46,959 nt of DNA from a virus: the UHGV virus genome UHGV-1362024; one strand, written 5' to 3'. Shown here piece by piece: positions 4,907-46,334 of the stretch (its first letter is position 1; every line of letters starts with the position of its first letter). The notes beneath the pieces are model-generated. The model searched no databases. It worked only from the letters and a program-made list of their open reading frames with translations, and was not told the DNA's origin. The position numbers were made by a program, and so were the translations under genes.

Positions 4907-5333
4907 AAGTCAGGAACCTTAATTTTGTTGATAATTTTTCGAGTGTTTTAAGGCGGTCTGTCTTGACTGCCGTTTTCTCTCGCGCATGCAGTATTTTATC
5001 ACGCCCCCACCATAGCGCGACATGTACCGGATGACTCCCTCTATAGGCAACCACCACATCGCCAGCTTTTGGCTGTTCGGTATCTTTCCAGAATGAAACT
5101 TCTCCATTGAAACAAGTGACAAAATCGCCGCCACTTGAATATGAATTATCATGATGGACATTAACATTCATGCAAAGGCGATAGAACAGCACCACCAAAC
5201 CCCAGCAGTCCACTGCATCAACGTGACAACATCTGTCGACGTATGGCTTTCCAAGCATCATCCTTTCAAAATCGTCAAACGGTACGCAGTCCGGGAAATT
5301 CTGTGATGTCATAAAGTTTTGCCACGTTGCCAT
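4854..5333 (-). CDS. Tail assembly protein with NlpC/P60 peptidase fold (lambda gpK-like); true start probably internal (near 5261 or 5312)
   Basis: Catalytic-type Cys context [11 protein letters not shown] and downstream His (HVALWWG, ILHA). It sits between the L-like and J-like genes. The listed start overlaps the upstream gene by 58 nt. Confidence 0.7.
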
Positions 5334-5745
5334 TAATTGGGTTTTTTATGGAGATGGAGACAGTTACATCAGACTGATCAAGCGTCACATCGTTCACATA
5401 AAGCGTATATGGTTTTAATGGTGTGTCTTTGTCGGTCTCGTCAAAACGCTGGTATAACGCAGTGATAGGCTCAATGCGTCCAGAACCTGACCATAACTTT
5501 AAATATTGCTTAAAGTCATTAGCCAGTCGCGCAAACTTCAGCGTGGCATTGATTACCGGTGTGTTCGATTGCTGGCTTCTGGTTACATCCATGCGCACTG
5601 GCTGGTAAGTATGACCGCCAAGTACAATATCAGAAAACTCATTGCCAACTAGCCGGACATAACCAAATGAAGAATGATAAAAGGTTATGGTGTCATACAG
5701 TTTCCAGTTTGGTCTTTTCGACTGGTATTCACGCAATGTTGGCAT
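5275..5745 (-). CDS. Minor tail protein (gpL-like)
   Basis: 156-aa ORF between the M-like and K-like genes; assignment is by position and size. Confidence 0.5.
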
Positions 5746-11098: not shown

Positions 11099-11130
11099 AC
11101 TGACGTAGATTGAAAGCATAAGGTGATTAA
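11099..11130 (+). promoter_or_regulatory. Plus-strand promoter of the TGACGTAGATTGA family (copy 1)
   Basis: cTGACGTAGATTGAaagcataagGTGATTaag, immediately upstream of the 11142 ORF. Confidence 0.45.
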
Positions 11131-11141
11131 GGGTTTGACAT

Positions 11142-11276
11142 ATGAACGAGACTGATGCTGATTTGAGATTTTACATTGACCTGTACGTTGATTGCGGGTT
11201 TACCTATGATGAGGCCGAGTTGATGGCGAAAAAATTACTTGCAATGGTAGGGGTGACATTCGATGAAAATAACTGA
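11142..11276 (+). CDS. Small hypothetical protein (44 aa)
   Basis: Unlisted short ORF (MNETDADLRFYIDLYVDCGF...); its stop overlaps the HNH start. Confidence 0.3.
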   Translation: MNETDADLRFYIDLYVDCGFTYDEAELMAKKLLAMVGVTFDENN

Positions 11277-11748
11277 TTGGTCAGATATTTTTTATTATTG
11301 TGATGGGGCTATTTACTGGAAGATAAGAACCTCAAACAGAGTGAAAATCGGAAGCGAGGTGAAGGCGGTAGGAGGCAATGGATATAAGATTGTTGGAATC
11401 TATGGCGTCAAGTATCTTGTTCATCGCATCATCTGGGAAATGCATAATGGGAAAATTCCTGACGGAATGCAGATTGATCATATAGACCACAATAAAACAA
11501 ATGATAAGATAGATAACCTCAGGCTTGTCACTCCAAAAGAGAATAATCACAACATGAAGTTCAGGGTGACAAACAAATCAGGTGTTACTGGTGTTTCATG
11601 GGATAAACAACATAAAAAATGGGCCTCAAACATAAAAGTTGATGGCGTAAAGATTCATCTTGGATTGTTTTCTGACTTAAATATGGCCGCTGAAGCAAGG
11701 AGAAAGGCGGAGGTTAAGTATGATTTTCATGAGAACCATGGTAAATGA
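11263..11748 (+). CDS. HNH homing endonuclease with AP2-type DNA-binding domain (paralog 1 of 3)
   Basis: HRIIWEMHNGKIPDGMQIDHIDHNKTNDKIDNLRLV and a C-terminal AP2-like segment (TGVSWDKQHKKWASNIKVDGVKIHLGLF). Paralogous to 25798-26319 and 36515-37000. Confidence 0.85.
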   Translation: MKITDWSDIFYYCDGAIYWKIRTSNRVKIGSEVKAVGGNGYKIVGIYGVKYLVHRIIWEMHNGKIPDGMQIDHIDHNKTNDKIDNLRLVTPKENNHNMKFRVTNKSGVTGVSWDKQHKKWASNIKVDGVKIHLGLFSDLNMAAEARRKAEVKYDFHENHGK

Positions 11749-16275: not shown

Positions 16276-16320
16276 ATTTTATCATAAAGTGTTGACGTAG
16301 ATTGAGGGTGTCGCTATAGT
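16276..16320. promoter_or_regulatory. Bidirectional promoter module: minus-strand extended -10 (TGATAAAAT) back-to-back with plus-strand TTGACGTAGATTGA-N10-TATAGT (copy 2)
   Basis: ATTTTATCAtaaagtgTTGACGtagattgagggtgtcgcTATAGTgatgacgtagaaac. TTGACG-17-TATAGT is a near-consensus sigma70 promoter, and a second GACGTAGA copy sits at about +1. Confidence 0.6.
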
Positions 16321-16360
16321 GATGACGTAGAAACAACAATAAATGTTAGAGGTGATGAAG

Positions 16361-16660
16361 ATGAATGAATTAAAAGGTACGCCGGGGTCGTGGGAAGTCG
16401 AAGATAACGGTTATTTTTATGACATTAACGCGGTGCGCGGAACTGTTGGGAATGTTTGCTCATCCGCAAGTTGGTTTGATAATGATGAGCATCGCGGTCC
16501 GGTGGCAATGGCAAATGCGCAACTCATCGCTGCCGCGCCGGAGTTGCTGGAAGCATTGCAAAATATGGTTGAAGCATATCAGTATGAGGCGTCAATTGAT
16601 AACCCAGCATTGCTGTCAGCGCGTGCCGCAATCGCGAAAGCACTCGGAGAATCCAAATGA
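16361..16660 (+). CDS. Hypothetical protein (listed from 16343; ATG 16361 has a better-spaced RBS GAGGTG)
   Basis: First gene of the plus-strand operon. Confidence 0.45.
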   Translation: MNELKGTPGSWEVEDNGYFYDINAVRGTVGNVCSSASWFDNDEHRGPVAMANAQLIAAAPELLEALQNMVEAYQYEASIDNPALLSARAAIAKALGESK

Positions 16661-16773
16661 TCCACCACGAAATACGAAAAGAAGACCTGAAGGCGTGGGA
16701 TAAGTTCAAAATCAAGCTGGCGTTAATCGTTATCGGATTCGCCATTGCCAGTGCAATCTGTTTATCAAAGTGA
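16657..16773 (+). CDS. Small membrane peptide (38 aa)
   Basis: Unlisted ORF MIHHEIRKEDLKAWDKFKIKLALIVIGFAIASAICLSK; ATGA-coupled to the upstream gene. Confidence 0.3.
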   Translation: MIHHEIRKEDLKAWDKFKIKLALIVIGFAIASAICLSK

Positions 16774-16780
16774 GGGGAAG

Positions 16781-17596
16781 ATGACATCTCTCGGAAAAAT
16801 TTACTCAGACAAAGAAACTCGCGGCGGAATCGTGGTCAACAAAGGTTATCAGGTCCCTGTCGACCAGCTTTACCTTGAGCCGGGGTACAACATCCGCGAA
16901 GCCGATGAGCAGCACGTTGAATACTTCGCGCAGTGTTGGGAATCAGGACAGCCAATCCCGGCGTTAACTGTTATTCCTGATTCCGACGGAAAGCGCATCA
17001 AGATTCTTGACGGCCAGCATCGTTACCTTGGAGCACTGCGTGCCATTGAGCGCGGCGTGCCAATTGCGCGAATTGAGTGCAAAGACTTCACCGGCGATGA
17101 GGCGGATAAAATCGCCTTCATGGTGTCTTCAAGTCAGGGCAAGCAACTCGACCCGCTTGAGCGTGCAAAGGCTTATGTGCGCCTCAAAGGGTTCGGGTGG
17201 ACGAATGAAGAAATCGCCAAGAAGGTCGGGCGCTCTGTGTCTGATGTGCAAATGCACCTGTCACTTGGTGATGTACCTGATGCCATCAAGCAGCGTATCA
17301 ATGCAGGCCAAATCAGCTATGCCAACGCCGTTGCGGTCGCACGTGAGCATGGCGATGATGCCGTTAACGTTATTGATGCCGCCGTTGAGGAAGCGAAAGC
17401 GCAGGGCAAAGATAAGGTGACGGCTAAAACGCTCAAGGCCAAAAAAGTTAAGCCGATTGACCGCCTGATTCAGTTGCTGAAAGAAGCAGACCATATGGTT
17501 GTCGCTGAGGGTCATGTTGCGCAGGAGACAGAAGAATTTTTGCGCCTTCCTTCCGCTGAGTTGAGTGAAGTTCTGGCTATTCTGGAGAAGCTGTGA
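16781..17596 (+). CDS. ParB-like nuclease domain protein (ParB/Srx N-terminal domain)
   Basis: KILDGQHRYLGA motif (DGxHR box). Listed from 16745, but ATG 16781 has RBS GAGGGG. Confidence 0.75.
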   Translation: MTSLGKIYSDKETRGGIVVNKGYQVPVDQLYLEPGYNIREADEQHVEYFAQCWESGQPIPALTVIPDSDGKRIKILDGQHRYLGALRAIERGVPIARIECKDFTGDEADKIAFMVSSSQGKQLDPLERAKAYVRLKGFGWTNEEIAKKVGRSVSDVQMHLSLGDVPDAIKQRINAGQISYANAVAVAREHGDDAVNVIDAAVEEAKAQGKDKVTAKTLKAKKVKPIDRLIQLLKEADHMVVAEGHVAQETEEFLRLPSAELSEVLAILEKL

Positions 17597-18525
17597 TGAC
17601 AGCCAGCTACTACAACGAATGGGACGCAAGTGCAGCGGCGTGGCTGCGAGAGTTAATTAACAATAAACTAATTCCTTACGGATATGTCGATGAACGATCA
17701 ATCACCGAAGTCACCCCTTCAGACCTGGAAGGATTTACACAGTGTCACTTCTTTGCCGGAATCGGAGGGTGGCCCCTTGCACTCCAGTTGGCTGGAATAC
17801 CAGCAAGCACTCAGCTCTGGACAGGATCACCACCTTGCCAGCCGTTTAGCGTTGCCGGTAAGTCTCTCGGATTTGACGACGAGCGGCACCTTGCCCCAGC
17901 ATTTCTCAGGCTCATCAGAGAGTGCAAGCCTCAATTGCTGTTTGGAGAGCAGGTTGCGGCAGCAATTGGAAAGCACTGGCTCGATTTTGTATTCCTTAAC
18001 CTGGAAGACAAAGGCTACGCCTGCGGGTCGGCAGTATTGCCAGCGTGCAGCGTCGGTGCACCACACAAACGCGACAGACTTTTCTTCGGCGCGATGCAAC
18101 TGGGCGACACCAATAGTGAACGACACAACTGGCAGCACGCATTGCTACAGCGGGAAGGACAGAAAGATATGCCTGAAGCTACCTGGACAGGCGAAGCTGG
18201 CCGCATTGCCCAGCCCAACTGCGAACAGCAACGACAGGGCTGCTGCACCAGAAAACGCACTAACTATGTATCGGAAGGACGGGAGCAAGATACAACAGCG
18301 TCTGCAGGATTTTGCAGCGATAACGCAACCAATCCGCATCACGGATTCTGGTCAGATGCTGACTGGCTCGGATGCAGGGATGGACAGTTCCGGCCAGTTG
18401 AACCCGGCACATTCCCGCTGGCTAATGGGATTCCCGCCAGGGTGGGACGACTGCGCGGTTATGGCAATGCCATCGTCCCGCAAGTCGCAGCGGAATTCAT
18501 TAAAGCATTCATGAGGTCAGTTTAA
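17593..18525 (+). CDS. DNA (cytosine-5)-methyltransferase
   Basis: Motif I FAGIGG, motif IV PCQPFS (catalytic Cys), motif VI-like FGEQV, motif VIII-like PHKRDRLFF, motif X GNAIVPQV. ATGA-coupled to ParB. Confidence 0.85.
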   Translation: MMTASYYNEWDASAAAWLRELINNKLIPYGYVDERSITEVTPSDLEGFTQCHFFAGIGGWPLALQLAGIPASTQLWTGSPPCQPFSVAGKSLGFDDERHLAPAFLRLIRECKPQLLFGEQVAAAIGKHWLDFVFLNLEDKGYACGSAVLPACSVGAPHKRDRLFFGAMQLGDTNSERHNWQHALLQREGQKDMPEATWTGEAGRIAQPNCEQQRQGCCTRKRTNYVSEGREQDTTASAGFCSDNATNPHHGFWSDADWLGCRDGQFRPVEPGTFPLANGIPARVGRLRGYGNAIVPQVAAEFIKAFMRSV

Positions 18526-18698
18526 TGAACCCCGAGCAATTCATAGAGAAAAACCTGCGCGAAAAACTGCCAGGCATCGACAACGCGGCTATAGAGGCCG
18601 CAATTACCCACTACAGGAGCAACCAGAGTGAAAAGAATGGCAAGATTTTCGATGAATGCCTGAAGGTTGCAAAACAACACATGATAAAGGTGAAGTGA
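18525..18698 (+). CDS. Small hypothetical protein (57 aa)
   Basis: Unlisted ORF MNPEQFIEKNLREKLPGIDNAAIEA...; coupled by TAATG to the upstream gene and GTGATGA to the downstream gene. Confidence 0.3.
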   Translation: MNPEQFIEKNLREKLPGIDNAAIEAAITHYRSNQSEKNGKIFDECLKVAKQHMIKVK

Positions 18699-19234
18699 TG
18701 AAATTAAAAGTTAGCAAGTTACTCCTTGAAGGTGCTTTGATATTTCAAGCCAAACAGGATGTGCGTTACTACCTGAATGGCATTTGCTTTATGCCTGATG
18801 GTCGAGTTGCCGCTACTGACGGTCATCGCGCCATGATTGCCAGTAAGCACGAAAACAAGATAAAAAGTAACGTCATCGTATCGGTAAGCAAGTCGCCAAC
18901 TAAGCGTTATGCGCATGCGCTACTGGACACCAAAACAGGTATTGTTACTTACCATGACGAGCATGAAATCATGGTAGGCGCAGGTATCTGCTCTGAGATT
19001 AATGGCCGATTCCCTGATATTGATCGCGTCATTCCTAAGCAGACCGCACCAACGGAACAGATTGGCTTTAATGCCAAATACCTGGAAGATGTTGAGAAGC
19101 TGGCGAAGTTGTTTAACCCGAAATTTGAAGCGGTGCTATTTGAGTTGAATGGCAACACCAGCGCCGCCGTCGCAAACATCAGTGCGCCTACTGGCGAGAC
19201 TGCAAAAGTTATCGTTATGCCAATGAGGATTTAG
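18698..19234 (+). CDS. Truncated DNA polymerase III beta sliding-clamp (DnaN) homolog, 178 aa
   Basis: QDVRYYLNGICF..ATDGHR matches E. coli beta QDVRYYLNGMLF..ATDGHR (domain II start). INGRFPDIDRVIPK matches VDGRFPDYRRVLPK. IGFNAKYLEDV matches IGFNVSYVLDV. The C-terminus KVIVMPMRI matches YVVMPMRL. Listed from 18656; ATG 18698 has RBS AAGGTGA. Confidence 0.75.
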   Translation: MKLKVSKLLLEGALIFQAKQDVRYYLNGICFMPDGRVAATDGHRAMIASKHENKIKSNVIVSVSKSPTKRYAHALLDTKTGIVTYHDEHEIMVGAGICSEINGRFPDIDRVIPKQTAPTEQIGFNAKYLEDVEKLAKLFNPKFEAVLFELNGNTSAAVANISAPTGETAKVIVMPMRI

Positions 19235-19488
19235 TGATGAAAAAGAATGGTGCTTTTACTCAGAAAGATGGCTCAAAAGTTGCCCGTCTTGGCGATGGTT
19301 ACGTTGGCATTAAATTTGGCTATTGCAATGGAGAAAAGTTAATGGCTTTTGCGAATACCATAAATCGCGGCATTCCTGGCGATAAAACTAATGATACTGA
19401 TGAGTCTGAAATTTACATCGCATTTAAAGATAATGCCGCAATCCAGCGGCTGATTGATAATCTCATTCAACTTCGCGACCATAAGTAA
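19234..19488 (+). CDS. Hypothetical protein (84 aa)
   Basis: Last gene of the operon, ATGA-coupled; followed by a terminator. Confidence 0.4.
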   Translation: MMKKNGAFTQKDGSKVARLGDGYVGIKFGYCNGEKLMAFANTINRGIPGDKTNDTDESEIYIAFKDNAAIQRLIDNLIQLRDHK

Positions 19489-20014
19489 ACAAAGCCCCTG
19501 TCGGGGCTTTTCTTTTATCACGGAAGATAAGCGTCATCCTCAAACCACGAAACGTAAGAGCATTGATATTTTGCGCCGCAGTATCCAGAGATGTGATGCG
19601 TAACAGATAGGTGGTATTAGGCGCCATGATGACCTGCTCACCAAGTTTTGACTGCGAATTACCCTGCCCCTGATTCGATGCGTTCCCTTCACTATACGTC
19701 GCGGCCACCGTCAGTTGCCCAATACTTGTAACCGTAGAGCCAGTAAGAAGCTGCGCTGTTGCAGTATGCTGCGCGATGTCATTTGGGTTATTAATCTCCG
19801 CAGCGGTTCCGCCAGTGACTACAGCTCCACGGTAAATGGATGCCACGACACCCTTACCGGTGTAGCCAATGATGCGCTGGTTAAACACGACCTGTTTTGA
19901 GCCGGTAATAAAAATGCTGTCAAGATTGGCTCCGCCAGCGACGTCAGTCACGCGACGCGATGCGGTAAATAGCTTTCTGCTTATTGGCAAGCTCCGAGTA
20001 GGACTGCGCGACAA
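19463..20014 (-). CDS. Putative structural (head-completion / connector) protein
   Basis: 183-aa Gly/Thr/Ala-rich ORF downstream of the capsid genes. Its 5' end overlaps the upstream ORF; a GTG start near 19945 is possible. Confidence 0.35.
   Translation of the reverse strand: MSRSPTRSLPISRKLFTASRRVTDVAGGANLDSIFITGSKQVVFNQRIIGYTGKGVVASIYRGAVVTGGTAAEINNPNDIAQHTATAQLLTGSTVTSIGQLTVAATYSEGNASNQGQGNSQSKLGEQVIMAPNTTYLLRITSLDTAAQNINALTFRGLRMTLIFRDKRKAPTGALFTYGREVE
19491..19517. terminator. Bidirectional rho-independent terminator (AAAGCCCCTGTCGGGGCTTTTCTTTT)
   Basis: Palindromic hairpin with flanking A-run and T-run between convergent units. Confidence 0.75.
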
Positions 20015-21880: not shown

Positions 21881-22315
21881 TTATGCTTTCACGTATGCGT
21901 TAGCGATAACGACATCACCAAAACCCTGAGCGCTGAGGGTGCGGTTTGCCTTCTCGTCGAAAAATGCGATCACTACATCACCAGCAGCAGCGGCCTTGAA
22001 TACGCCAGCAGCGCCGACTGTCAATTCCTGACCGATGGTGTATGCAGCAGCAGCCAACTGAACATAGTATTCCTGGTCAGGCTCCGCACGATACAGAACT
22101 GCAGTTTCATTTGCAGCGTATGCTGTGTCGATGGTCTGACCATAGAAACGGCGATTGCCGAGGATAAAGATTCGGCCTTTAGCGTCTGTGGCGACGGTGG
22201 CATTTGCAGCAAGTTTCTTCACGGCAACACCAGGAGTCAGCGCGGTGGCGATCTGAACGTTAATGGTCTCCGGCTCACGCTCAACCGGACCACGATAAAT
22301 CACATGAGCAACCAT
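21881..22315 (-). CDS. Head protein (DUF2190-like position; decoration or scaffold accessory)
   Basis: 144-aa Ala-rich ORF between the scaffold-like and capsid genes. Confidence 0.35.
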
Positions 22316-23610
22316 TATTTAACCTCCAGATGAGCATTCAGGTCGTAATCCTTCCACTGGTCTTCTGCTTCACGGTTCGGCTGGAACCCGCCGGAAATCG
22401 GGGCCGCTTTACTGGTGAGTGCATAGGTTTCACGCAGTGCTTCGCCAGTCAGCGCATTAACAGCAGATTCCGGCAACTTCAGCTCAGCCATAATGGCGGC
22501 GCGCATTGCGGTTTCTTCCTGTGCAGCATTGGCTTGCAGCTGGTCGCGCAGAGTTTTGTTTTGCGCCTCCACATCGGCCAGTTTCTGGTTGACTGCGGTC
22601 AACGATTCCTGAACCGGTTTGAGGGCATCGGCTAATGCAGCCTGTAATTCCTCGTTAGTCATTGAGATTTCCCCTTGAGTTGTTTTTACCGGTTCAAGCT
22701 CTGTCTTATAAACAGCCTTAACCCGTTCACCGACTAATTCTACCATATCCTCGCGGACGATGTAGGACTGCATATAAATGGTGCCATCAATCTCAACGCC
22801 AAAGTAATTATCATAAACGGCGACGATATAGGGCCATACATCAGCGCCAGTCTCGGCCCTGATGATATTGCGGAGCTGCTCGGTAATATCCATGAACGAT
22901 AACTGATTGCCAGTCAGGCGATTGATGGCACGTTGCCACCATTTAATTTTGTTTGCACTTTCGTCGGTCATTACCGATTCCTCAAGGTTAACCACAACGC
23001 GCTCAATGTCTTCGCCATTGGTGGCAAAGATACCAACACCATCTGCTGGCGTTCCCGCTCCCGGGACCCCAGGCGGAAGAATGGCGAGATGATCCCATTC
23101 CATGTTGCGTGCAATCCATGAGTATTTCTTGCCCTTGCTTGTGCCTTCCGCAGCTTCGCGGTTGAGCAATAAGCCAGTGGATACGTGAATTGGTTCAGCG
23201 CCTTCGGTGGAGTTCATTAGAGCTTCAATGCGACCGAGTAGCTCACGACCTTTCTCTGAGCGTTCAGCGATGACTTTGTTTACCTTCAGGTCAACAAGCA
23301 CCTTGCCACCGTCATGAGAGGCGTTCTCTATCCACGCACCAACATGATACTGGTTTACCGCCCGAATGTTGTGCGCCGAAACGAAAGAGCCATCAACCAT
23401 TGGGTGGTTGTATGGGGCCGGGTTTCCATTTAGTCCATGATAACTATTGCGTATCTCTTCCGCTGGGTACATCCCGCCGTTCATCACTATATCGTCGCAT
23501 AACGGAATAACATTTTTTATAACGTAGTGCATGTCACCGTCGATCACCTGCTCACTAATATTGCTTGCAGAGTTGATTGTGGTGAGCACGTTGACTTGCA
23601 GCTTATTCAT
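22315..23610 (-). CDS. Prohead scaffold / protease-like protein (DUF2213-like) with C-terminal coiled-coil
   Basis: 431 aa; the C-terminal region ([40 protein letters not shown]) is scaffold-like. Sits upstream of the capsid gene. Confidence 0.45.
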
Positions 23611-26359: not shown

Positions 26360-26385
26360 TTGACTAATTGACGTAGATTAGTCAA
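26360..26385. promoter_or_regulatory. Palindromic operator / divergent promoter region: TTGACTAAT-TGACGTAG-ATTAGTCAA (copy 3 of the TGACGTAGATT module)
   Basis: 9-bp inverted repeat flanking the conserved TGACGTAG core, between divergent operons. A TTATAAT box sits about 20 nt upstream, at 26338. Confidence 0.5.
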
Positions 26386-36514: not shown

Positions 36515-37000
36515 TTATACACCATGATTATCGTGAAACCCATACTCTTCTTCTGCTTTCTTTCTTGCCAGCTCCGCATCAAGTATGTCGTTGAAATATC
36601 CAAGATGTATGAACTTCTTGTTAACCCTTATTTTTGCTTGCCACTTTCGCTTATCCTTCCTCCAGTGTACCCCAGTTACTCCACTACTATTGCTAGAGTA
36701 CTTAGATTTGTTTTTTAGATTCCCTCCCCTATTTGTCAGCCTGAGATTTTCAATCCTGTTATCACCAGGGTTATGGTTTATATGGTCAATCTCCAATCCG
36801 CCAGTTATAGGGCCATTATGCATTTCCCATATGATTCTGTGCGCAAAGTATTTTCGTCCAGAGCACCAAATAGATGTATATCCTTTTGACCCTGAGTGGC
36901 CTGCAACCTTACCTTTTCTTGCCTTGCGGCCATCATCCTCGCGCCATATCAGGTTTCCGTTGTTGTATTCAAACAGCTCATTCCAGTCTATTCTTTTCAT
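36515..37000 (-). CDS. HNH homing endonuclease with AP2 domain (paralog 3 of 3); listed from 37066, but MKRIDW at 37000 matches the N-termini of the paralogs
   Basis: AHRIIWEMHNGPITGGLEIDHINHNPGDNRIENLRLT; AP2-like TGVHWRKDKRKWQAKIRVNKKFIHLGYF. Confidence 0.85.
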   Translation of the reverse strand: MKRIDWNELFEYNNGNLIWREDDGRKARKGKVAGHSGSKGYTSIWCSGRKYFAHRIIWEMHNGPITGGLEIDHINHNPGDNRIENLRLTNRGGNLKNKSKYSSNSSGVTGVHWRKDKRKWQAKIRVNKKFIHLGYFNDILDAELARKKAEEEYGFHDNHGV

Positions 37001-37157
37001 CACACTTACCGCTCCTGCACCACAAATCATTGCGTGGGGATTTAACATGAACCACCTCAATCGCATCAGGAAAGGCTTTGGCGATTGCTGCTATGAAGCG
37101 GTCGACGCCTTCTAGCCGAGCCTTCTGCCACACCTCCTGCTTTGATTTTTGCGGCAT
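36978..37157 (-). CDS. Small hypothetical protein (59 aa)
   Basis: Unlisted ORF MPQKSKQEVWQKARLEGVDRFIAAIAKAF...; TAATG-coupled. Confidence 0.25.
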   Translation of the reverse strand: MPQKSKQEVWQKARLEGVDRFIAAIAKAFPDAIEVVHVKSPRNDLWCRSGKCDEKNRLE

Positions 37158-38988: not shown

Positions 38989-39017
38989 ACTATACGATGG
39001 CGCTCAATCTACGTCAA
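38989..39017 (-). promoter_or_regulatory. Minus-strand promoter (copy 7): TTGACGTAGATTGA-N10-TATAGT
   Basis: The reverse complement reads TTGACGtagattgagcgccatcgTATAGT; TTGACG-17-TATAGT is a near-consensus sigma70 promoter. Confidence 0.6.
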
Positions 39018-39507: not shown

Positions 39508-39885
39508 TTAGTTATATGCACAATCCCTTTCTCTCCTCGCGTCAAGGTGTCTCTTCAGTTCTTCCCTGTTGACGCCAAACGCATCGCAGAAGTTTGCCAC
39601 GGCATTTCCAGCGAAATGCTCATCGGGAGTCCACTTGCCGCACTTTTTCGCCACATCACGATAAGGCTGTGAAATGAAAGCGGTGTTGCCCTTGTAGTTT
39701 ATGCGGCAGAAAAATACATCATCCTCTATGCTGTGACCCATATTGCATCGGAACACTGGCACGCTGTGATAGTAGACTTCCATCAGGTTGCGTCCAGTCA
39801 TCATGTTTAGCGCTGCTTCTGGCTCGCACTCAGCTTCATACTGGCTGTATGCAAAAATATCGCTTTGCTGAATTACGCGGATCAT
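39508..39885 (-). CDS. Hypothetical protein (125 aa), Cys/His-rich
   Basis: Coupled downstream of the primase-helicase gene. Confidence 0.45.
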   Translation of the reverse strand: MIRVIQQSDIFAYSQYEAECEPEAALNMMTGRNLMEVYYHSVPVFRCNMGHSIEDDVFFCRINYKGNTAFISQPYRDVAKKCGKWTPDEHFAGNAVANFCDAFGVNREELKRHLDARRERDCAYN

Positions 39886-42215
39886 ATGCTTACCTCATCA
39901 TTAACTAATTTGTAGATGATGGCCCGGTTGCTTGTACGCTTGGCCTCTTTATCCTCAATAACCTCGCCGTCTTCAATGAGCTTGTCCAGCATGCGCTCAG
40001 AGTCAGCTCGTTTATAGTTTCCATCCTTGGCCACGCCAATGATGATCGCTTTGCGGGCCATTCCACGCTTGACGTACTCACGGACAAGCGATTCAAGCCC
40101 TTCTACGCGCCTGTCGTTGCTCTTGGAGTTAGCCCCTGACAAACTATCAGCCCGCATCATTAAATCGCTTGTTGATTTGATGGTGAGCGCAACGGCGTAC
40201 CGTAGATGCTCCATTGTAATAACGCCAGTATCGCAGGCAAGAATCCCGGATATCTTCGCCACCTTTACAGCGCATCGGTTAATCAACGGTTGATAACCCG
40301 TGCCATTTTCTACGTGCTGACGGGCAATCATCTTGAGCCATGAAAAAAACTCTTTTGCCATCGCTGAAACCTCTGGCGTTGCCTTTATTGCTCGCCTTTC
40401 TTTGCTGCTTATGATTGATTCAGTCCAGTTTTTGTAACCAGCAGTAGTGCCATTTATTATTGTTTTTATAGTCATTTGCATGGGCATTGGCAGGTCGCAG
40501 TATTCCACGTCTTCGTTTTCGTCTGCGATTTCCTGAAGCTCCTGCATAATCATGGCGCGACCCATGAGACCTGATTTGATGTTCTCTTCGGTAATGAGTT
40601 TTTTGAACTGGTCATCCGTAGATACACCAAACATGGAAAAGAAAGGATTTCGTATCGCACCATCTATACGACGAATCACATCTTCAAACTGACGCTTAAT
40701 ATCGACAGGATCTGCTTGCAACTCGTTTTCTTCGATCATCATCATGAGAGTGCCAAGCCTTTTTTCAAACTGCTTGACGTATTCATCAGTGATGCGCTGG
40801 TCACAGTACAGTATTTCTGCTGTGTATGACTCCATTAGTGCGCCAGCCGTGGCCATGTTGTACTCGCTGACCTTTTGTCCAACCACACTGCCTAGTTTGA
40901 TGCCAATCTCATCCATAATGAGGTTAAACATCTGATTAGCTGCCAGCCCCTCATATATGGCTCTTTCAGAACGGATTTTACCGGCCACTGTCTTGCTGAG
41001 TCCTGAGCAGTCGATAATTTTTTGCAGGGCCGCAAGCACGTCACCCTTTCCTGAGCCAGACCCGGCGATGCCAATAGAAAAAAGATTTGGTACAGCCTTA
41101 CGATTGGTAAGGTAAATATCTGAAGAGGCGCCGCAGATGATTGATGCCGCATGGATGGCTGCCAGAGCTGCAAGATATTCTCTTTTCTCAGCGCAGTTTC
41201 TGTTAATCCACTCCGTCAACTTTCCCACGAACCCTGGCGGAAATCGCACATCAACAGATTTGTAATCGACGGGGCATTCTCCAACACCCATCGCCATTTT
41301 TTTCTCAAACTTCTCAAGCAATGCAATTTCTTCTGGAGATGCCTGAAATGATACCGCACGAACCCATCCACCCTCTTCAGCCAGATGAACAAGAGTAGCG
41401 GCAGTGACACGGTCTCCGTTTCCCTTACCGTATGAATGCCAGTGGTAATCCATGTCAGATGGGTCATACTTTGAGAAGCGTGATGACCATGAGTCCCACA
41501 GCTCAAATCCGTTACCATCTGTTGCCTCATGAATTGCCATGCCAACTCGAATCCAGTCATCATAATCTTCACCACAGTTAATGTGGTTCAGCATGTCCTG
41601 AAGTTCCTGCATGGAAAACGATTCGGCACCGAGTGAAAATTCCTCGCGCTCTGCTCGCTGCAATAGCTCAACAAGTGACGACGGAGGCTCTGTTATGGAT
41701 GACGGAGAGCCATGCTCAGCTTCATAAAAGTTGCCTGATTTGTGGAATGAGCCACATCCTATAACGAAACCTGATGACTTGAAGTCAATTCCTTTGAATC
41801 TCTTGTCGTGAGAATTGAGCTTCACTCCATTTGGCAATTTATAATAAATATGCTTTCCGCCACCACCAGTGTTCACCACAAATCCTGATTCATCGGCAAG
41901 CTCCATATCAAGCGCCTCGCAAAGCGCCTCATACCCTTCATTGCCACCATTTCGCGGGTCAACATCCACGACAAGATAGCCATCGACCAGCACACCGAAG
42001 CTGTTTAGCTGGCCAAACTCGCGCATGTTTTCGAGTTGGTCATCTTCCCATATGATTCCACATTGCCAGTTTGACATTATGGGATGCTTGCCTGCTGCGT
42101 GGCATTCAGGACGCTCGCAGGTGCATTTTCTGTCATGATCCATCGGGTAGATTCCTATAACAGGGAATCCGGCGGCGTGATAATCCTTGTATCCTGTCAT
42201 TATTTCGCTCTCCAT
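39882..42215 (-). CDS. DNA primase-polymerase / helicase (prim-pol N-terminal domain plus D5/DUF3987-type helicase region)
   Basis: 777 aa. N-terminal bifunctional prim-pol-like region (GFPVIGIYPMD...GKHPIMSNWQ...VVDVDPRNGG...GGGGKHIYYKL); C-terminal P-loop GIAGSGSGKGDV. Confidence 0.8.
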   Translation of the reverse strand: MESEIMTGYKDYHAAGFPVIGIYPMDHDRKCTCERPECHAAGKHPIMSNWQCGIIWEDDQLENMREFGQLNSFGVLVDGYLVVDVDPRNGGNEGYEALCEALDMELADESGFVVNTGGGGKHIYYKLPNGVKLNSHDKRFKGIDFKSSGFVIGCGSFHKSGNFYEAEHGSPSSITEPPSSLVELLQRAEREEFSLGAESFSMQELQDMLNHINCGEDYDDWIRVGMAIHEATDGNGFELWDSWSSRFSKYDPSDMDYHWHSYGKGNGDRVTAATLVHLAEEGGWVRAVSFQASPEEIALLEKFEKKMAMGVGECPVDYKSVDVRFPPGFVGKLTEWINRNCAEKREYLAALAAIHAASIICGASSDIYLTNRKAVPNLFSIGIAGSGSGKGDVLAALQKIIDCSGLSKTVAGKIRSERAIYEGLAANQMFNLIMDEIGIKLGSVVGQKVSEYNMATAGALMESYTAEILYCDQRITDEYVKQFEKRLGTLMMMIEENELQADPVDIKRQFEDVIRRIDGAIRNPFFSMFGVSTDDQFKKLITEENIKSGLMGRAMIMQELQEIADENEDVEYCDLPMPMQMTIKTIINGTTAGYKNWTESIISSKERRAIKATPEVSAMAKEFFSWLKMIARQHVENGTGYQPLINRCAVKVAKISGILACDTGVITMEHLRYAVALTIKSTSDLMMRADSLSGANSKSNDRRVEGLESLVREYVKRGMARKAIIIGVAKDGNYKRADSERMLDKLIEDGEVIEDKEAKRTSNRAIIYKLVNDEVSI

Positions 42216-42530: not shown

Positions 42531-42573
42531 TTACTCACACCAGCAACAACGCTGAGTGATTCGAGAGGACACT

Positions 42574-43416
42574 ATGAGCTTATCAATGATTCAAAAACCA
42601 AAACCAGTTTCACCTATCATTACTCTTGTTGGCACCCCTGGCGTTGGCAAGACTACTCTGGCAGCGCTTTTCCCTAAGCCTGTTTTCATTCAGGCGGAAG
42701 AGATTACCGGTGTATTCGACGACTGGGACGAAGAAAACAAGCCTGACTCATTCCCGGTGCTGAAACGAGCTGATGCAAAGCGCAAGACGAGCACCAAAGA
42801 AGACTTGTTGTCGCAGTTGCGCGCTCTTATCACAGAAGAGCATGACTATAAAACGCTGGTTATCGACTCCATCACCAGCCTACACGCCATGTTTGAGCAT
42901 GAGGTTTGCGAAAACTATGGAGTAGATAACGTTGGCGCAGCAGCGGGTGGTTACAACAAGGGCTATCTGGTTGTGGCGGAGATGCATGCTGAAATTATTA
43001 ACGCCTGCAAGTATCTTCGTTCCAACAAAGGTATGAGCATCATTTATCTTGCGCATGCTGGCATACGTAAGATGAAGAACCGACCAGATTCTGACGAATA
43101 CACCGTTTATACCCTCAATATGCACGAAGCCAGTATTGATGGTTACGTTGCGCTTAGCGATGCTGTTATCTATATCCGCAATGAGGAGTTTGTGAAGGGT
43201 GCTGAGACAGATAAAAAAGGCCAGGTAACTAAGTTCGGTAAAGTTGTGCAGACAGGGCAGCGTGTACTTGTCACCTCTGGTGATGGACGGGTTGGTTACG
43301 TTAATGCGAAAAATCGCTTCAACCTTGAGCCTGAGATTCAGTTTGATAAAGGAGAAAATCCACTTCTGACAGAGATTAAGTATTATGCGTCTTTACGAGA
43401 TAACGAAACAGCTTAA
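42574..43416 (+). CDS. Sak4-like RecA-family ATPase (AAA_24-type single-strand annealing / recombination accessory protein)
   Basis: Walker A LVGTPGVGKTT near the N-terminus, in a recombination module with Gp157-like and SSB genes. RBS CGAGAGGACA. Listed from 42556. Confidence 0.7.
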   Translation: MSLSMIQKPKPVSPIITLVGTPGVGKTTLAALFPKPVFIQAEEITGVFDDWDEENKPDSFPVLKRADAKRKTSTKEDLLSQLRALITEEHDYKTLVIDSITSLHAMFEHEVCENYGVDNVGAAAGGYNKGYLVVAEMHAEIINACKYLRSNKGMSIIYLAHAGIRKMKNRPDSDEYTVYTLNMHEASIDGYVALSDAVIYIRNEEFVKGAETDKKGQVTKFGKVVQTGQRVLVTSGDGRVGYVNAKNRFNLEPEIQFDKGENPLLTEIKYYASLRDNETA

Positions 43417-43864
43417 CGAACTGCTTGCGATGGAAGATATTCCGCGCGAGCAGATTGAAGATACCATTAACCTGATTGAGGAGGAGTTTGAAGGAAAGGC
43501 CGAGATGGTGGCCGCTTATATCAGCGAGCTTGAGGCGGATGAGGCTGGCATGAAGGCTGAGATTGTTCGCCTGTCAGAACGCAAACGTGTGCTGACTGCG
43601 AAGATAGATAACCTTAAAGATTATCTTCGTCAGAACATGCTGGCATCTGGAAAAACGAATATCAAAGGCAAGCTTTTCAGCATCACGCTTGGCAAACCAT
43701 CTCCTGTTTTGGATGTGCTTGTCCCGGTTGAGCAGTTGCCTGAGAAGTATCGCGTTGTAAATTTTTCGGCAGATAATGCAGCCATTAAAGCAGCACTGAA
43801 AGCCGGAACTGAAATTAAAGGTTGTGCCATCACCGATGGAAAACCAAAGCTGATCATCAAATAA
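43385..43864 (+). CDS. Siphovirus Gp157-family protein
   Basis: 159-aa coiled-coil protein adjacent to Sak4, the canonical pairing. The 5' end overlaps Sak4 by 32 nt. Confidence 0.55.
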   Translation: MRLYEITKQLNELLAMEDIPREQIEDTINLIEEEFEGKAEMVAAYISELEADEAGMKAEIVRLSERKRVLTAKIDNLKDYLRQNMLASGKTNIKGKLFSITLGKPSPVLDVLVPVEQLPEKYRVVNFSADNAAIKAALKAGTEIKGCAITDGKPKLIIK

Positions 43865-43880
43865 TCGAGAGGACATAAAA

Positions 43881-44417
43881 ATGGGTTTCTGGAATCTTTC
43901 TGACGGTAAAGAAGTTGAGTCAAAGTCTGAATTTGAGGCTGGTGGTGGTTTTGAAGTTATTCCTGACGGCACCCGCGTGCTGGCTGCTGTTGAAGAGTGC
44001 AAGGACGATGAATGGGAAGGTGAGCGCTTCTTTAACCTTAAATGGCGCATCCTGGACGATGATTACAAAAATCGTATCATCTTCCAGAAGCTAAAGGTTT
44101 TCAGCCAGAAGGACAAGCAGCGCGATAACGCTATCAGCATGCTGGCAGCAATTGATGCAAACGCTGGAGGTAAATTGATGGCGTCAGGGAAAGAGCCTAC
44201 TGATTTTGCAATCGCAAGTGCGCTGGCTAACCGCCCGATGATCCTCCTGCTTCGCGTCTGGCAGTCTGACGATAAGCAGAAATCAGGTAACTACGTCGCT
44301 GGCGTCTTTGGTCGCCAGCAAACTAAATCCGCTACAGCAGCAAAGCCACAAAAGCAAACGGCAAAGCCACAGGGTGAAGAGCCGCCGATGGATTTCGATG
44401 AAGATATTCCGTTTTGA
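43881..44417 (+). CDS. Putative ssDNA-binding protein (non-canonical fold) carrying a bacterial SSB-type C-terminal tail DFDEDIPF
   Basis: The C-terminus PMDFDEDIPF matches the SSB-Ct interaction motif. Position is in the Sak4/Gp157 module. RBS CGAGAGGACA. No OB-fold signature recognised by eye. Confidence 0.5.
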   Translation: MGFWNLSDGKEVESKSEFEAGGGFEVIPDGTRVLAAVEECKDDEWEGERFFNLKWRILDDDYKNRIIFQKLKVFSQKDKQRDNAISMLAAIDANAGGKLMASGKEPTDFAIASALANRPMILLLRVWQSDDKQKSGNYVAGVFGRQQTKSATAAKPQKQTAKPQGEEPPMDFDEDIPF

Positions 44418-44471: not shown

Positions 44472-46334
44472 ATGAAATATACGCTAAGGCCATACCAGCA
44501 GGAAGCGGTTGACGCGGCTATGGCACATATCAGAAGCACAATTTCATCATGCGTAATAATTCTCCCTACTGGCGCAGGCAAGTCAATGGTTGTCGCTGAG
44601 CTTGCAGCACGCATCTATGAGATGAGTAAAAAGCGTGTGCTTTGCATTGCTCCAACCGGGGAACTTGTGACACAGAATCGATCTAAATACCTTTTAACTG
44701 GCGAGCCAGCAAGCATGTTCAGCGCCAAGGCTGGCCCTAAAAATCTGCGCCACCCTGTTGTTTTTGGCTCTCCTGTCACAATCAAAAACTCTATTGAAAT
44801 GTTCGGCGATAAATATGGAGCTGTAATTATTGACGAGTGCGACGGAATCACGCCAACCATTAAATTTATTATTAATGAGATGAGGCGTCGCAACCCAAAG
44901 CTGCGCATCATTGGCATGACCGCAACGCCTTATCGCCTTGGTACGGGGTACATATTTAAAGATCATTACCAGTCCGGCCCCACTGATGAAGAGACAGCCA
45001 TTGATCCTTACTATGACAAGGTTGTTTATGAGCTTGAGGCAAAATTCCTGATTGATAATGGCTATCTGACTCCTCCAGTTACTGAGCACGTAGAAGAAGA
45101 ATATGATACCTCTGGACTTGAGAAGGATAAGCTTGGGCGTTATACAACGGCATCGGTAGAGCGCGCCATGGTTGGAAAAGGACGCAAGACGTCTCGCATT
45201 GTTGAGGATATCGTCAGGCGATCAGTGAATCGCCGGGGAACTATGATTTTCGCCAGCACGAAAAAGCATGCCATGGAGATTATGGAATCTCTGCCTCCTG
45301 GTAGTTATAGCTATGTTTTCGGTGATATGCCTACTGCTGAGCGCAATAAGGCGATATCAGATTTTAAGGCGCAGAAGGTTAAATACATTGTCAACCAGAA
45401 TATCCTTACGGTTGGCGTCGATGTGCCACATTGCGATCATATTGCTGTAATGCGCGCCACAGAGTCGCCGCGCCTGTATCAGCAGATAATAGGTCGTGGA
45501 ACCAGGCTATACGAAGGTAAGGAAAACTTTCTCGTTAGCGACTATGCAGGAAACATAGAGCGTCATTTTGCTGAGACAGGAGACCTGTTTACTCCTGAGA
45601 TTAAAGCAACACGAAAAAAACCATCTGTTCCAATGGAAGTAAAATGCCCATCGTGCGGATTTGTTAATGAATTTGGAGTGCGTCCAAATCCAGAAGGCCT
45701 TGAGATGGACAGTGAGGGATATTGGCTTGATCTATCTGGTGACAGAATAATGGTAGAAATTTATGATAAATCTGGCGAAAAGATAGGGCAAAAGCCAATG
45801 CCCGGACACTTTGGGCGCCGCTGTAAGAACTATATTATGGTTGGTGCGCTGCGTGAAATGCGTCGCTGCACGTATAAATGGTCATTCAAAGAGTGCCCTG
45901 ATTGTGGTTTTGAAAATGATATTGCTGCTCGTAACTGCGTGAGCTGCAAAGCAGAAATTATTGATCCAAACAAGAAGCTACAGGAAGAGGCTGCAAGACT
46001 TGATGCTGCGCCAGATGCAACCAAGCAATCAAAAGTTACAATGATGAGCATAACTCGCCACTATGTAAGCAGTGGTGATGATATGTTGGTAGTTAAGTTT
46101 GCTATTGAGCAGTCGCCATGGTTCGTTAACAAATTCTTTAAACCCATGGCAGAAAAGACGTGGCAAAGAAGAGAATGGGAAGACTTCAGTATTAAATCTT
46201 TTGGAGAGGTACTGGAAATAGATGAAGCACTATCTAGAAGAGAAGATGCCACACATCCTACTGCCATTATGTTCAGAAAGGATAAAGGCAGCAAATATTA
46301 CAATGTGAAAGGAATGTATTGGGGTGAGTTATGA
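44472..46334 (+). CDS. Superfamily II DEAD/DEAH-type helicase with C-terminal zinc-ribbon region
   Basis: Motif I LPTGAGKS, motif II IIDECD, arginine-finger-type QQIIGRGTR, C-terminal CPSCG...CPDCG...CVSCK. RBS CGAGAGGACA. Confidence 0.85.
   Translation: MKYTLRPYQQEAVDAAMAHIRSTISSCVIILPTGAGKSMVVAELAARIYEMSKKRVLCIAPTGELVTQNRSKYLLTGEPASMFSAKAGPKNLRHPVVFGSPVTIKNSIEMFGDKYGAVIIDECDGITPTIKFIINEMRRRNPKLRIIGMTATPYRLGTGYIFKDHYQSGPTDEETAIDPYYDKVVYELEAKFLIDNGYLTPPVTEHVEEEYDTSGLEKDKLGRYTTASVERAMVGKGRKTSRIVEDIVRRSVNRRGTMIFASTKKHAMEIMESLPPGSYSYVFGDMPTAERNKAISDFKAQKVKYIVNQNILTVGVDVPHCDHIAVMRATESPRLYQQIIGRGTRLYEGKENFLVSDYAGNIERHFAETGDLFTPEIKATRKKPSVPMEVKCPSCGFVNEFGVRPNPEGLEMDSEGYWLDLSGDRIMVEIYDKSGEKIGQKPMPGHFGRRCKNYIMVGALREMRRCTYKWSFKECPDCGFENDIAARNCVSCKAEIIDPNKKLQEEAARLDAAPDATKQSKVTMMSITRHYVSSGDDMLVVKFAIEQSPWFVNKFFKPMAEKTWQRREWEDFSIKSFGEVLEIDEALSRREDATHPTAIMFRKDKGSKYYNVKGMYWGEL

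Follow-up and report, generated by a model that had tools for sequence, protein, structure and literature searches.

What use does a bacteriophage have for half of a sliding clamp? The question is raised by UHGV-1362024, a viral sequence of 46,959 bases (the window) that amounts to an essentially complete Klebsiella siphovirus genome; its nearest relatives are KpV2811, BUCT541, vB_KpnS_ZX4 and Aeromonas phage pIS4-A (a Roufvirus). On the plus strand, at positions 18698-19234, a gene encodes a 178-residue protein similar to the bacterial beta clamp (DnaN), here called the mini-clamp. It lies in an operon with genes for a ParB-like protein and a C5 cytosine DNA methyltransferase, and an initial annotation, made from the sequence alone, read these three as a functional unit in which the clamp fragment might either poison the host clamp or lure away its binding partners. 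The protein-binding pocket of the beta clamp is a hub that organises bacterial replicative, repair and regulatory proteins, and is an antibiotic target. A natural protein of about 20 kDa reduced to that pocket, and present in hundreds of phages, would reveal a new viral way to rewire or disarm the host replisome. As described below, the mini-clamp keeps this pocket almost unchanged and lacks the parts that close the clamp ring, and in our preferred reading it would engage host proteins off the ring.

Homology, fold and the clamp pocket

Is the mini-clamp really a clamp? When it was compared with PDB sequences using phmmer, beta clamps alone were returned down to E<0.3, the best at E=2.8e-13. 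TIGR00663 matched at E=2.5e-11 (43.2 bits against a cutoff of 137.65), with matched positions only at 138-252, and a profile built from 100 diverse members of the family scored 98.7 bits on E. coli DnaN. The two Pfam families for the middle and C-terminal parts of the clamp were matched in the correct order, PF02767 with 19.8 bits and PF02768 with 15 bits, both below the gathering threshold (27), and the Pfam search gave no match to PF00712, the N-terminal clamp domain. A standard pipeline would therefore leave the mini-clamp unannotated or lean on BLAST labels. The phmmer alignments place residues 7-116 of the mini-clamp on residues 136-252 of E. coli beta, that is on domain II and the interdomain linker, and residues 113/120-178 on beta 307/315-366. 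When the C-terminal module alone was made into a profile, the second half of domain III scored 29.1 bits, its first half 6.1 bits and the other half-domains nothing. Domain III is thus represented by only one of its two motifs, and the alignment and the module scores agree with the initial annotation that domain I and much of domain III are lacking. The simplest colinear history would be the loss of domain I and of residues roughly 253-312.

Structure prediction led to the same conclusion. The AF2 model of the monomer, made with an alignment of 100 sequences, has a pLDDT of 96.9 and a pTM of 0.90, and shows a clamp fold whose secondary structure runs beta-alpha-beta-beta-beta, then four strands, then the GRFPD linker, then strand-alpha-beta-beta-beta. 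Domain II is retained in the model except that helix alpha-2, the second channel helix, is replaced by a 9-residue loop with a conserved proline. The profile searches and the model thus bear out the initial claim of DnaN homology, and together identify the mini-clamp as a genuine beta-clamp homolog of half size (178 versus 366 residues). Its best-supported start is the ATG at 18698, which has a Shine-Dalgarno sequence (AAGGTGA) 4 nt upstream; the N-terminus MK(I/L)KVS that follows is also found in distant relatives, backing this choice.

Which parts of the clamp have been kept? The residues of the pocket and of the dimer interface were taken from a 2024 review (PMC11139829) and mapped through the family alignment; conservation was scored on 100 representatives having 27-49% identity to the mini-clamp. 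In E. coli beta the pocket that receives the clamp-binding motif (CBM) comprises subsite I (R152, L155, T172, G174, H175, R176, L177, P242, R246, V247, V360, M362) and subsite II (H175, N320, Y323, V344, M362, P363, M364, R365) (PMC11139829). All 18 of these residues have an aligned counterpart in the mini-clamp and 15 are identical, including the C-terminal MPMR(L/I), as against 33 of 133 positions elsewhere (25%; Fisher p=2e-6). At the three remaining positions the substitutions (L to A, V to A and V to I) are conservative. The initial statement that the residues of the protein-binding cleft survive is therefore correct. The same holds for the family at large: mean conservation is 0.75 in the pocket and 0.37 in the rest of the protein (p=3e-8), pocket residues make up 10 of the 16 best-conserved columns (p=4e-8), and most other conserved positions adjoin pocket residues in sequence. 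No region of the family is better conserved than the pocket, and at the sequence level the alignment shows no second patch of conservation.

The ring-closing parts present the opposite picture. The head-to-tail dimer interface of E. coli beta is formed by I78, R103 and F106 of domain I and by I272, L273, E298 and E304 of domain III (PMC11139829), and all seven fall in segments that have no counterpart in the mini-clamp, namely domain I and the first half of domain III. The mini-clamp, which is phage-encoded, also differs from DnaN in charge. Its calculated pI is 9.0 (the family median is 8.3, with 65% of members above 7.5) whereas that of E. coli beta is 5.2, and two other full-length clamps have values of about 4.8. 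Conserved lysines or arginines at mini-clamp positions 11, 19, 134, 137 and 142 lie, in the model, on or beside the two retained channel-side helices. The gene is under purifying selection, dN/dS among close relatives being 0.11 (165 sequence pairs).

A widespread family and its labels

Although the initial annotation presented the gene as a novelty, the family is widespread and its members already go by the name 'pol III beta subunit' in the GenBank entries of many phages. Among 1.84 billion cluster representatives (50% identity) scanned, 152 matched at E<1e-10; most of the 150 matches listed are 170-210 residues long, and full-length DnaN first appears at about 3e-11. Homologs are carried by 277 sequenced phages, among them phages of Klebsiella, Salmonella, Escherichia (Kagunavirus, Dhillonvirus, Sortsnevirus, Bas14, Bas77), Vibrio, Shewanella, Burkholderia, Pantoea and Xanthomonas. 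Among the BASEL phages of E. coli K-12, Bas14 has a homolog, as does Bas77 (71% identity), and Bas78 and Bas79 gave similar DNA matches. A few bacterial genomes (Pantoea, Serratia, Symbiopectobacterium, Atlantibacter, Neptuniibacter and others) also match, possibly through prophages; after the first dozen or so, the matches in the bacterial scan are partial (query about 18-150), resemble cellular dnaN and are uninformative on function. The same truncated model recurs in BFVD for many phage proteins (TM 0.84-0.89). The scan also returned P0239, a protein of 1004 residues with the repeat CFSPDGRYALSG, at E=1.4e-11 over 10 stretches; the match is spurious, being driven by WD40 repeats, and is a warning for family counts made automatically.

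Members of the family bear two kinds of label. In GenBank they are 'DNA polymerase III beta subunit' or 'sliding clamp'. In PHROG they are 'RusA-like Holliday junction resolvase' (phrog_3007), a name that has spread via pharokka and RefSeq, for instance to NC_054653, NC_071150 and NC_048178. The mini-clamp matches phrog_3007 over its full length (E=3.3e-58; residues 1-178 on positions 1-186 of a 190-position profile), and is the same kind of protein as the phrog_3007 or 'pol III beta' proteins of Roufvirus-like Klebsiella phages, Kagunavirus, Dhillonvirus, Sortsnevirus and Serratia phage Eta. However, it has no Pfam match to a RusA domain at E<=1, and its predicted fold is that of a clamp. Pfam and fold both contradict the RusA label, which is therefore a propagating misannotation of a half-size clamp family.

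The mini-clamp is, then, an ordinary member of a widespread, already annotated and uncharacterised phage family. We found no functional study of the family in the open-access literature, papers on relatives using the gene merely as a 'pol III beta' marker (PMC9901506), and no defence-system model in PADLOC matches the mini-clamp. Recognising the family for what it is would correct its widespread mislabelling as a polymerase subunit or a RusA resolvase, and the mini-clamp could offer a small framework with which ligands for the clamp pocket are studied or screened. The hypothesis developed below is testable in model E. coli phages and is apparently unexplored.

Proposed partners and mode of action

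Our prediction is that the mini-clamp works without a ring, as a pocket-only clamp module to which host clamp-client proteins bind and which serves as their tether or decoy; on the sequence and model evidence we hold this to be somewhat better than an even bet. The protein is probably a monomer, or a fragment of the beta-clamp fold that forms no ring. Its gene would be read from a sigma-70 promoter of host type, and its pocket would bind the QL(x)LF-type motifs of host clients (Pol III alpha and delta, Hda, the translesion polymerases, MutS and MutL); with no ring closure through the canonical interface, the protein would act off the ring. Two versions can be envisaged. In version (a) the mini-clamp would be a loader-independent tether whose basic concave face holds host replisome proteins on phage DNA. 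In version (b) it would be a decoy that draws clients off the host clamp, which may suit phages with a polymerase of their own. The decoy was proposed in the initial annotation and is still viable, the pocket being retained, but for this phage we slightly favour the tether, to which its basic charge and the lysines kept on the channel side lend appeal. The analysis establishes the homology, the fold, the selective conservation of the pocket, the loss of the interface segments, the basic charge, the purifying selection and the gene's independence of its neighbours; the binding of peptides and of DNA, the clients themselves, the oligomeric state and the direction in which the protein acts are what we infer from sequence and model. 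There is a precedent for a clamp that presents its pocket outside a ring, although an engineered and full-length one: the monomeric E. coli beta variant I272A/L273A has an affinity for the clamp-loader subunit delta about 50 times that of the dimer (PMC11139829). A clamp fragment could therefore compete effectively.

Why host partners rather than phage ones? The replication and recombination module of the window comprises a PrimPol/PriCT_2/DUF3987 primase-helicase (39882-42215, minus strand) and, on the plus strand, an SF2 helicase (44472-46334), a Sak4-like annealase (AAA_24; 42556-43416), a Mu Gam-like protein (43385-43864) and a single-stranded DNA-binding protein (SSB; 43881-44417). No dedicated DNA polymerase was found among the window proteins scanned. 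The phage SSB ends in PPMDFDEDIPF, and its last eight residues resemble the acidic tail of E. coli SSB, DFDDDIPF, so that it may join the interaction network of the host SSB (chi/clamp loader, PriA and others). The absence of a dedicated polymerase from the proteins scanned, together with the host-like SSB tail, suggests that the phage relies on the host Pol III holoenzyme. It might be supposed that the mini-clamp is confined to polymerase-less phages, but this idea was rejected, since Dhillonvirus Bas14 has DNA polymerase I. Loose CBM patterns are not enriched in the phage proteome, three being found where roughly eight were expected from estimated residue frequencies, and none occurs in the seven replication and methyltransferase proteins of Bas14 that were scanned. 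This lack of enrichment among phage proteins points to host clients.

Genomic context points the same way. In Kagunavirus XY2, Guernseyvirinae phage SE1, Dhillonvirus Bas14 and Shewanella phage 1/41 (which has a tail-sheath gene) the mini-clamp is encoded by a solitary gene on the opposite strand within the structural (late) module. The lone genes (4965-5486 of locus L002, 2971-3486 of L135, 2992-3510 of L136 and 3004-3552 of L137) run opposite to the structural genes in a moron-like arrangement. Each of the four has an AT-rich upstream region of its own, and promoter-like sites are present in two. Because the gene travels alone, a mini-clamp of this kind most likely works with host partners or DNA rather than with a co-encoded protein. 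In Bas14, the region upstream of the gene contains two copies of the direct repeat TTGGTTGCAC, overlapping a promoter-like site.

Several points weigh against a pocket module aimed at host clients. A decoy that blocked Pol III would harm a polymerase-less phage, and neither version fits every carrier phage cleanly. Bas14 carries the mini-clamp in addition to its own DNA polymerase I, and therefore recruitment of host Pol III cannot be a universal role, nor can the protein simply replace a missing polymerase accessory. Pocket residues also serve the fold of any clamp, and their conservation could be partly structural. Finally, an alternative alignment (6 bits, E=0.006) puts residues of about 134-170 on the first half of domain III, which includes the I272/L273 helix, and some interface-like surface may thus survive in the mini-clamp.

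Are there other viral proteins of this design? The herpesvirus factors UL42, UL44, PF-8 and BMRF1 have the clamp fold but form no closed ring, being monomers or C-shaped dimers with basic DNA-binding surfaces, and they hold the polymerase by a peptide-binding site equivalent to the clamp pocket. They differ from the mini-clamp in having two full domains, in being PCNA-like and not beta-like, and in serving a virus-encoded polymerase; fold and logic are alike, and there is no detectable sequence relationship. A broader and more tentative proposal, for which we would give rather less than even odds, is that the mini-clamp family constitutes an unrecognised class of phage host-takeover proteins, ring-less and loader-independent, which would attach host clients to phage DNA or else remove them from the host clamp. 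If this is true, bacterial viruses would have in this family an equivalent of the herpesvirus UL42/UL44 strategy, aimed at the host clamp interactome.

Could the mini-clamp instead be a true sliding clamp? T4/RB69 gp45 and full-length phage DnaN are closed rings (a trimer of two-domain and a dimer of three-domain subunits, respectively), and gp45 has its own loader and polymerase. The mini-clamp has one and a half domains, and four such protomers, bringing together 12 beta-alpha-beta-beta-beta motifs, might form a six-domain ring by pairing of half-domains. The host clamp loader would load this ring, which would confer processivity on host Pol III or on a phage polymerase. The internal pseudo-twofold symmetry of the clamp fold would in principle let two half-domains rebuild one, loader and polymerase binding would likewise need a conserved pocket, and basic residues are kept on or beside the channel-side helices. 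That said, the canonical interface residues are absent, and with alpha-2 of domain II modelled as a loop each protomer would lack two adjacent channel helices. Beyond the pocket no conserved surface patch hints at an oligomer interface, and AF2 is very confident of the stand-alone monomer. Moreover, pockets would show on both faces of such a ring, and a clamp-loader gene turned up in none of the genomic contexts examined. We accordingly regard a ring as unlikely.

Another possibility is that the mini-clamp is an accessory factor that tethers the co-encoded C5 methyltransferase or the ParB-like protein to DNA, much as PCNA tethers DNMT1. This bears on the functional unit of the initial annotation. 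Several arrangements seem to favour it: three unrelated phages have methyltransferase genes alongside that of the mini-clamp, namely the window, Sortsne (order Dam - mini-clamp - methyltransferase) and Vibrio PVP-XSN (mini-clamp - Dam - SSB), and in Serratia phage Eta the ParB gene is directly upstream (SSB - ParB - mini-clamp - helicase). Context was surveyed by seed homology over all open reading frames (ORFs) in 129 loci forming 18 clusters, with GenBank annotation used as well. Within the closest cluster (82 loci) the mini-clamp gene has near it a ParB gene in 53 loci, the 57-residue gene of the operon in 51, a C5 methyltransferase gene in 7 and the last ORF of the operon in 6; the methyltransferase seeds span some families only, so that the association counts are a lower bound. 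Most other clusters showed no methyltransferase near the gene with the seeds used, and the general association suggested by Sortsne and PVP-XSN held in few of the 18. In Bas14 about 20 kb separates the Dam and Dcm genes from the mini-clamp gene, and in four lineages, as noted above, the gene stands alone. As to direct contacts, the methyltransferase has no CBM-like string. The string QMHLSL in the ParB-like protein fits the hexameric CBM consensus but was rejected as a partner motif; it sits in a helix of the helix-turn-helix (HTH) region, and the glutamine is lost in divergent ParB homologs (DLHLQL, DQLLAF). The link of the mini-clamp to ParB and methyltransferase is thus largely incidental, a functional unit of the three is not supported, and we consider a role as their accessory factor improbable.

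More doubtful still is the dominant-negative subunit of the initial annotation, which would join host beta monomers or cap an opened ring and so block host replication. Homology to host beta, free beta-sheet edges and the weak 6-bit alignment of the C-terminal module on the I272/L273 helix region could be cited for it. Against it, both halves of the head-to-tail interface are in the deleted segments, family conservation centres on the pocket and not on edge strands, and the phage appears to need the host replisome. We give this idea very little credence. Last, that the gene is a decaying, functionless remnant of a captured dnaN, as its shortness relative to DnaN and its scores below the Pfam gathering thresholds might hint, is effectively refuted by the low dN/dS, by a length of about 170-210 residues kept in more than 100 divergent clusters, by the confident, compact model, and by translational coupling with a good Shine-Dalgarno sequence.

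The operon and its neighbouring genes

The region 16292-19510 is a compact plus-strand operon. All seven ORFs listed in the initial annotation are present, and they are tightly coupled as described there, the junctions being overlaps of 1-4 nt or a gap of 7 nt. The sigma-70-type promoter TTGACG-17-TATAGT is likewise where it was reported (16292-16320, plus strand) and matches the consensus at 10 of 12 positions. It is not, however, uniquely the strongest, as had been thought: 14 sites in the window score 10/12, and the same hexamer pair recurs at 39017 on the minus strand. The -35 hexamer falls within a repeated 13-mer, TGACGTAGATTGA, that is found seven times in the window with at most two mismatches, where 0.93 would be expected (0 of 100 shuffled sequences reach seven). 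Copies lie at 11101, 16293 and 29049 on the plus strand and at 39004 on the minus strand, with near-copies at 26369, 34030 and 34047 (plus). Similarity between the sites at 16292 and 39017(-) extends over about 60 nt and takes in the identical promoter hexamers and spacing. The repeated element around TGACGTAGATTGA is probably a shared early promoter or operator of the phage.

The first gene (16361-16660) encodes a 99-residue protein of unknown function (phrog_1273) whose homolog in KpV2811 is equal in length; a Shine-Dalgarno sequence, GAGGTG, precedes the ATG at 16361 by 6 nt. It overlaps by 4 nt the gene for a 38-residue peptide with a hydrophobic C-terminal segment (16657-16773). The third product (16781-17596) is a ParB-like DNA-binding protein, in which a DGQHR-type N-terminal region is followed by a ParB/KorB HTH. 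The protein matches phrog_1033 at 3e-87. The evidence is best for the HTH part: PF17762 (HTH_ParB) matches at 4.5e-11 (43.2 bits against a cutoff of 22.6) and PF08535 at 2.6e-6. A ParB/Srx-type N-terminal domain (CTP-binding, 'nuclease-like') shows only through TIGR00180 at 2e-11, its 43.8 bits being under the curated cutoff of 58.45, and through a DGQHR-like motif. The initial annotation called this protein a ParB-like nuclease; the ParB-like part of that name is sound, but the Pfam search reported no separate match to the 'ParB-like nuclease' domain (PF02195).

The C5 cytosine methyltransferase of the same annotation (17596-18525) stands: it matches PF00145 at 3.5e-22 (79.7 bits against a cutoff of 22) and phrog_363 at 1.5e-84, and has FAGIGG (motif I, FxGxG), PPCQPFS (motif IV, PCQ) and GNAIVP (motif X, GN..P). 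Judged by these motifs the enzyme looks intact; within this phage group its gene is an accessory one. An alternative-frame ORF of 276 residues (17684-18514, plus strand) lies wholly inside the methyltransferase gene and is probably spurious.

Next comes a gene for a 57-residue protein of unknown function (phrog_4439; 18525-18698), which is translationally coupled to the mini-clamp gene. In KpV2811 an extra gene with an endonuclease VII domain (22276-22734 of its locus) lies between the methyltransferase gene and the 57-residue gene. Because of this insertion, and because the methyltransferase is missing from most relatives, the stretch of the operon around position 18525 is, on this comparison, a hotspot of gene gain and loss. 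The last gene, which starts at 19237 (or 19234) and ends at 19488, encodes an orphan protein of 83 or 84 residues and unknown function with no family match in the Pfam or PHROG searches. It is followed at 19491-19510 by a hairpin, AAAGCCCC-TGTC-GGGGCTTT, flanked by T runs, that has the form of a bidirectional intrinsic terminator. Elsewhere in the window are two genes resembling HNH_3 homing endonucleases (PF13392), one at 11263-11748 on the plus strand (E=9e-22) and the other at 36515-37066 on the minus strand (E=2e-18).

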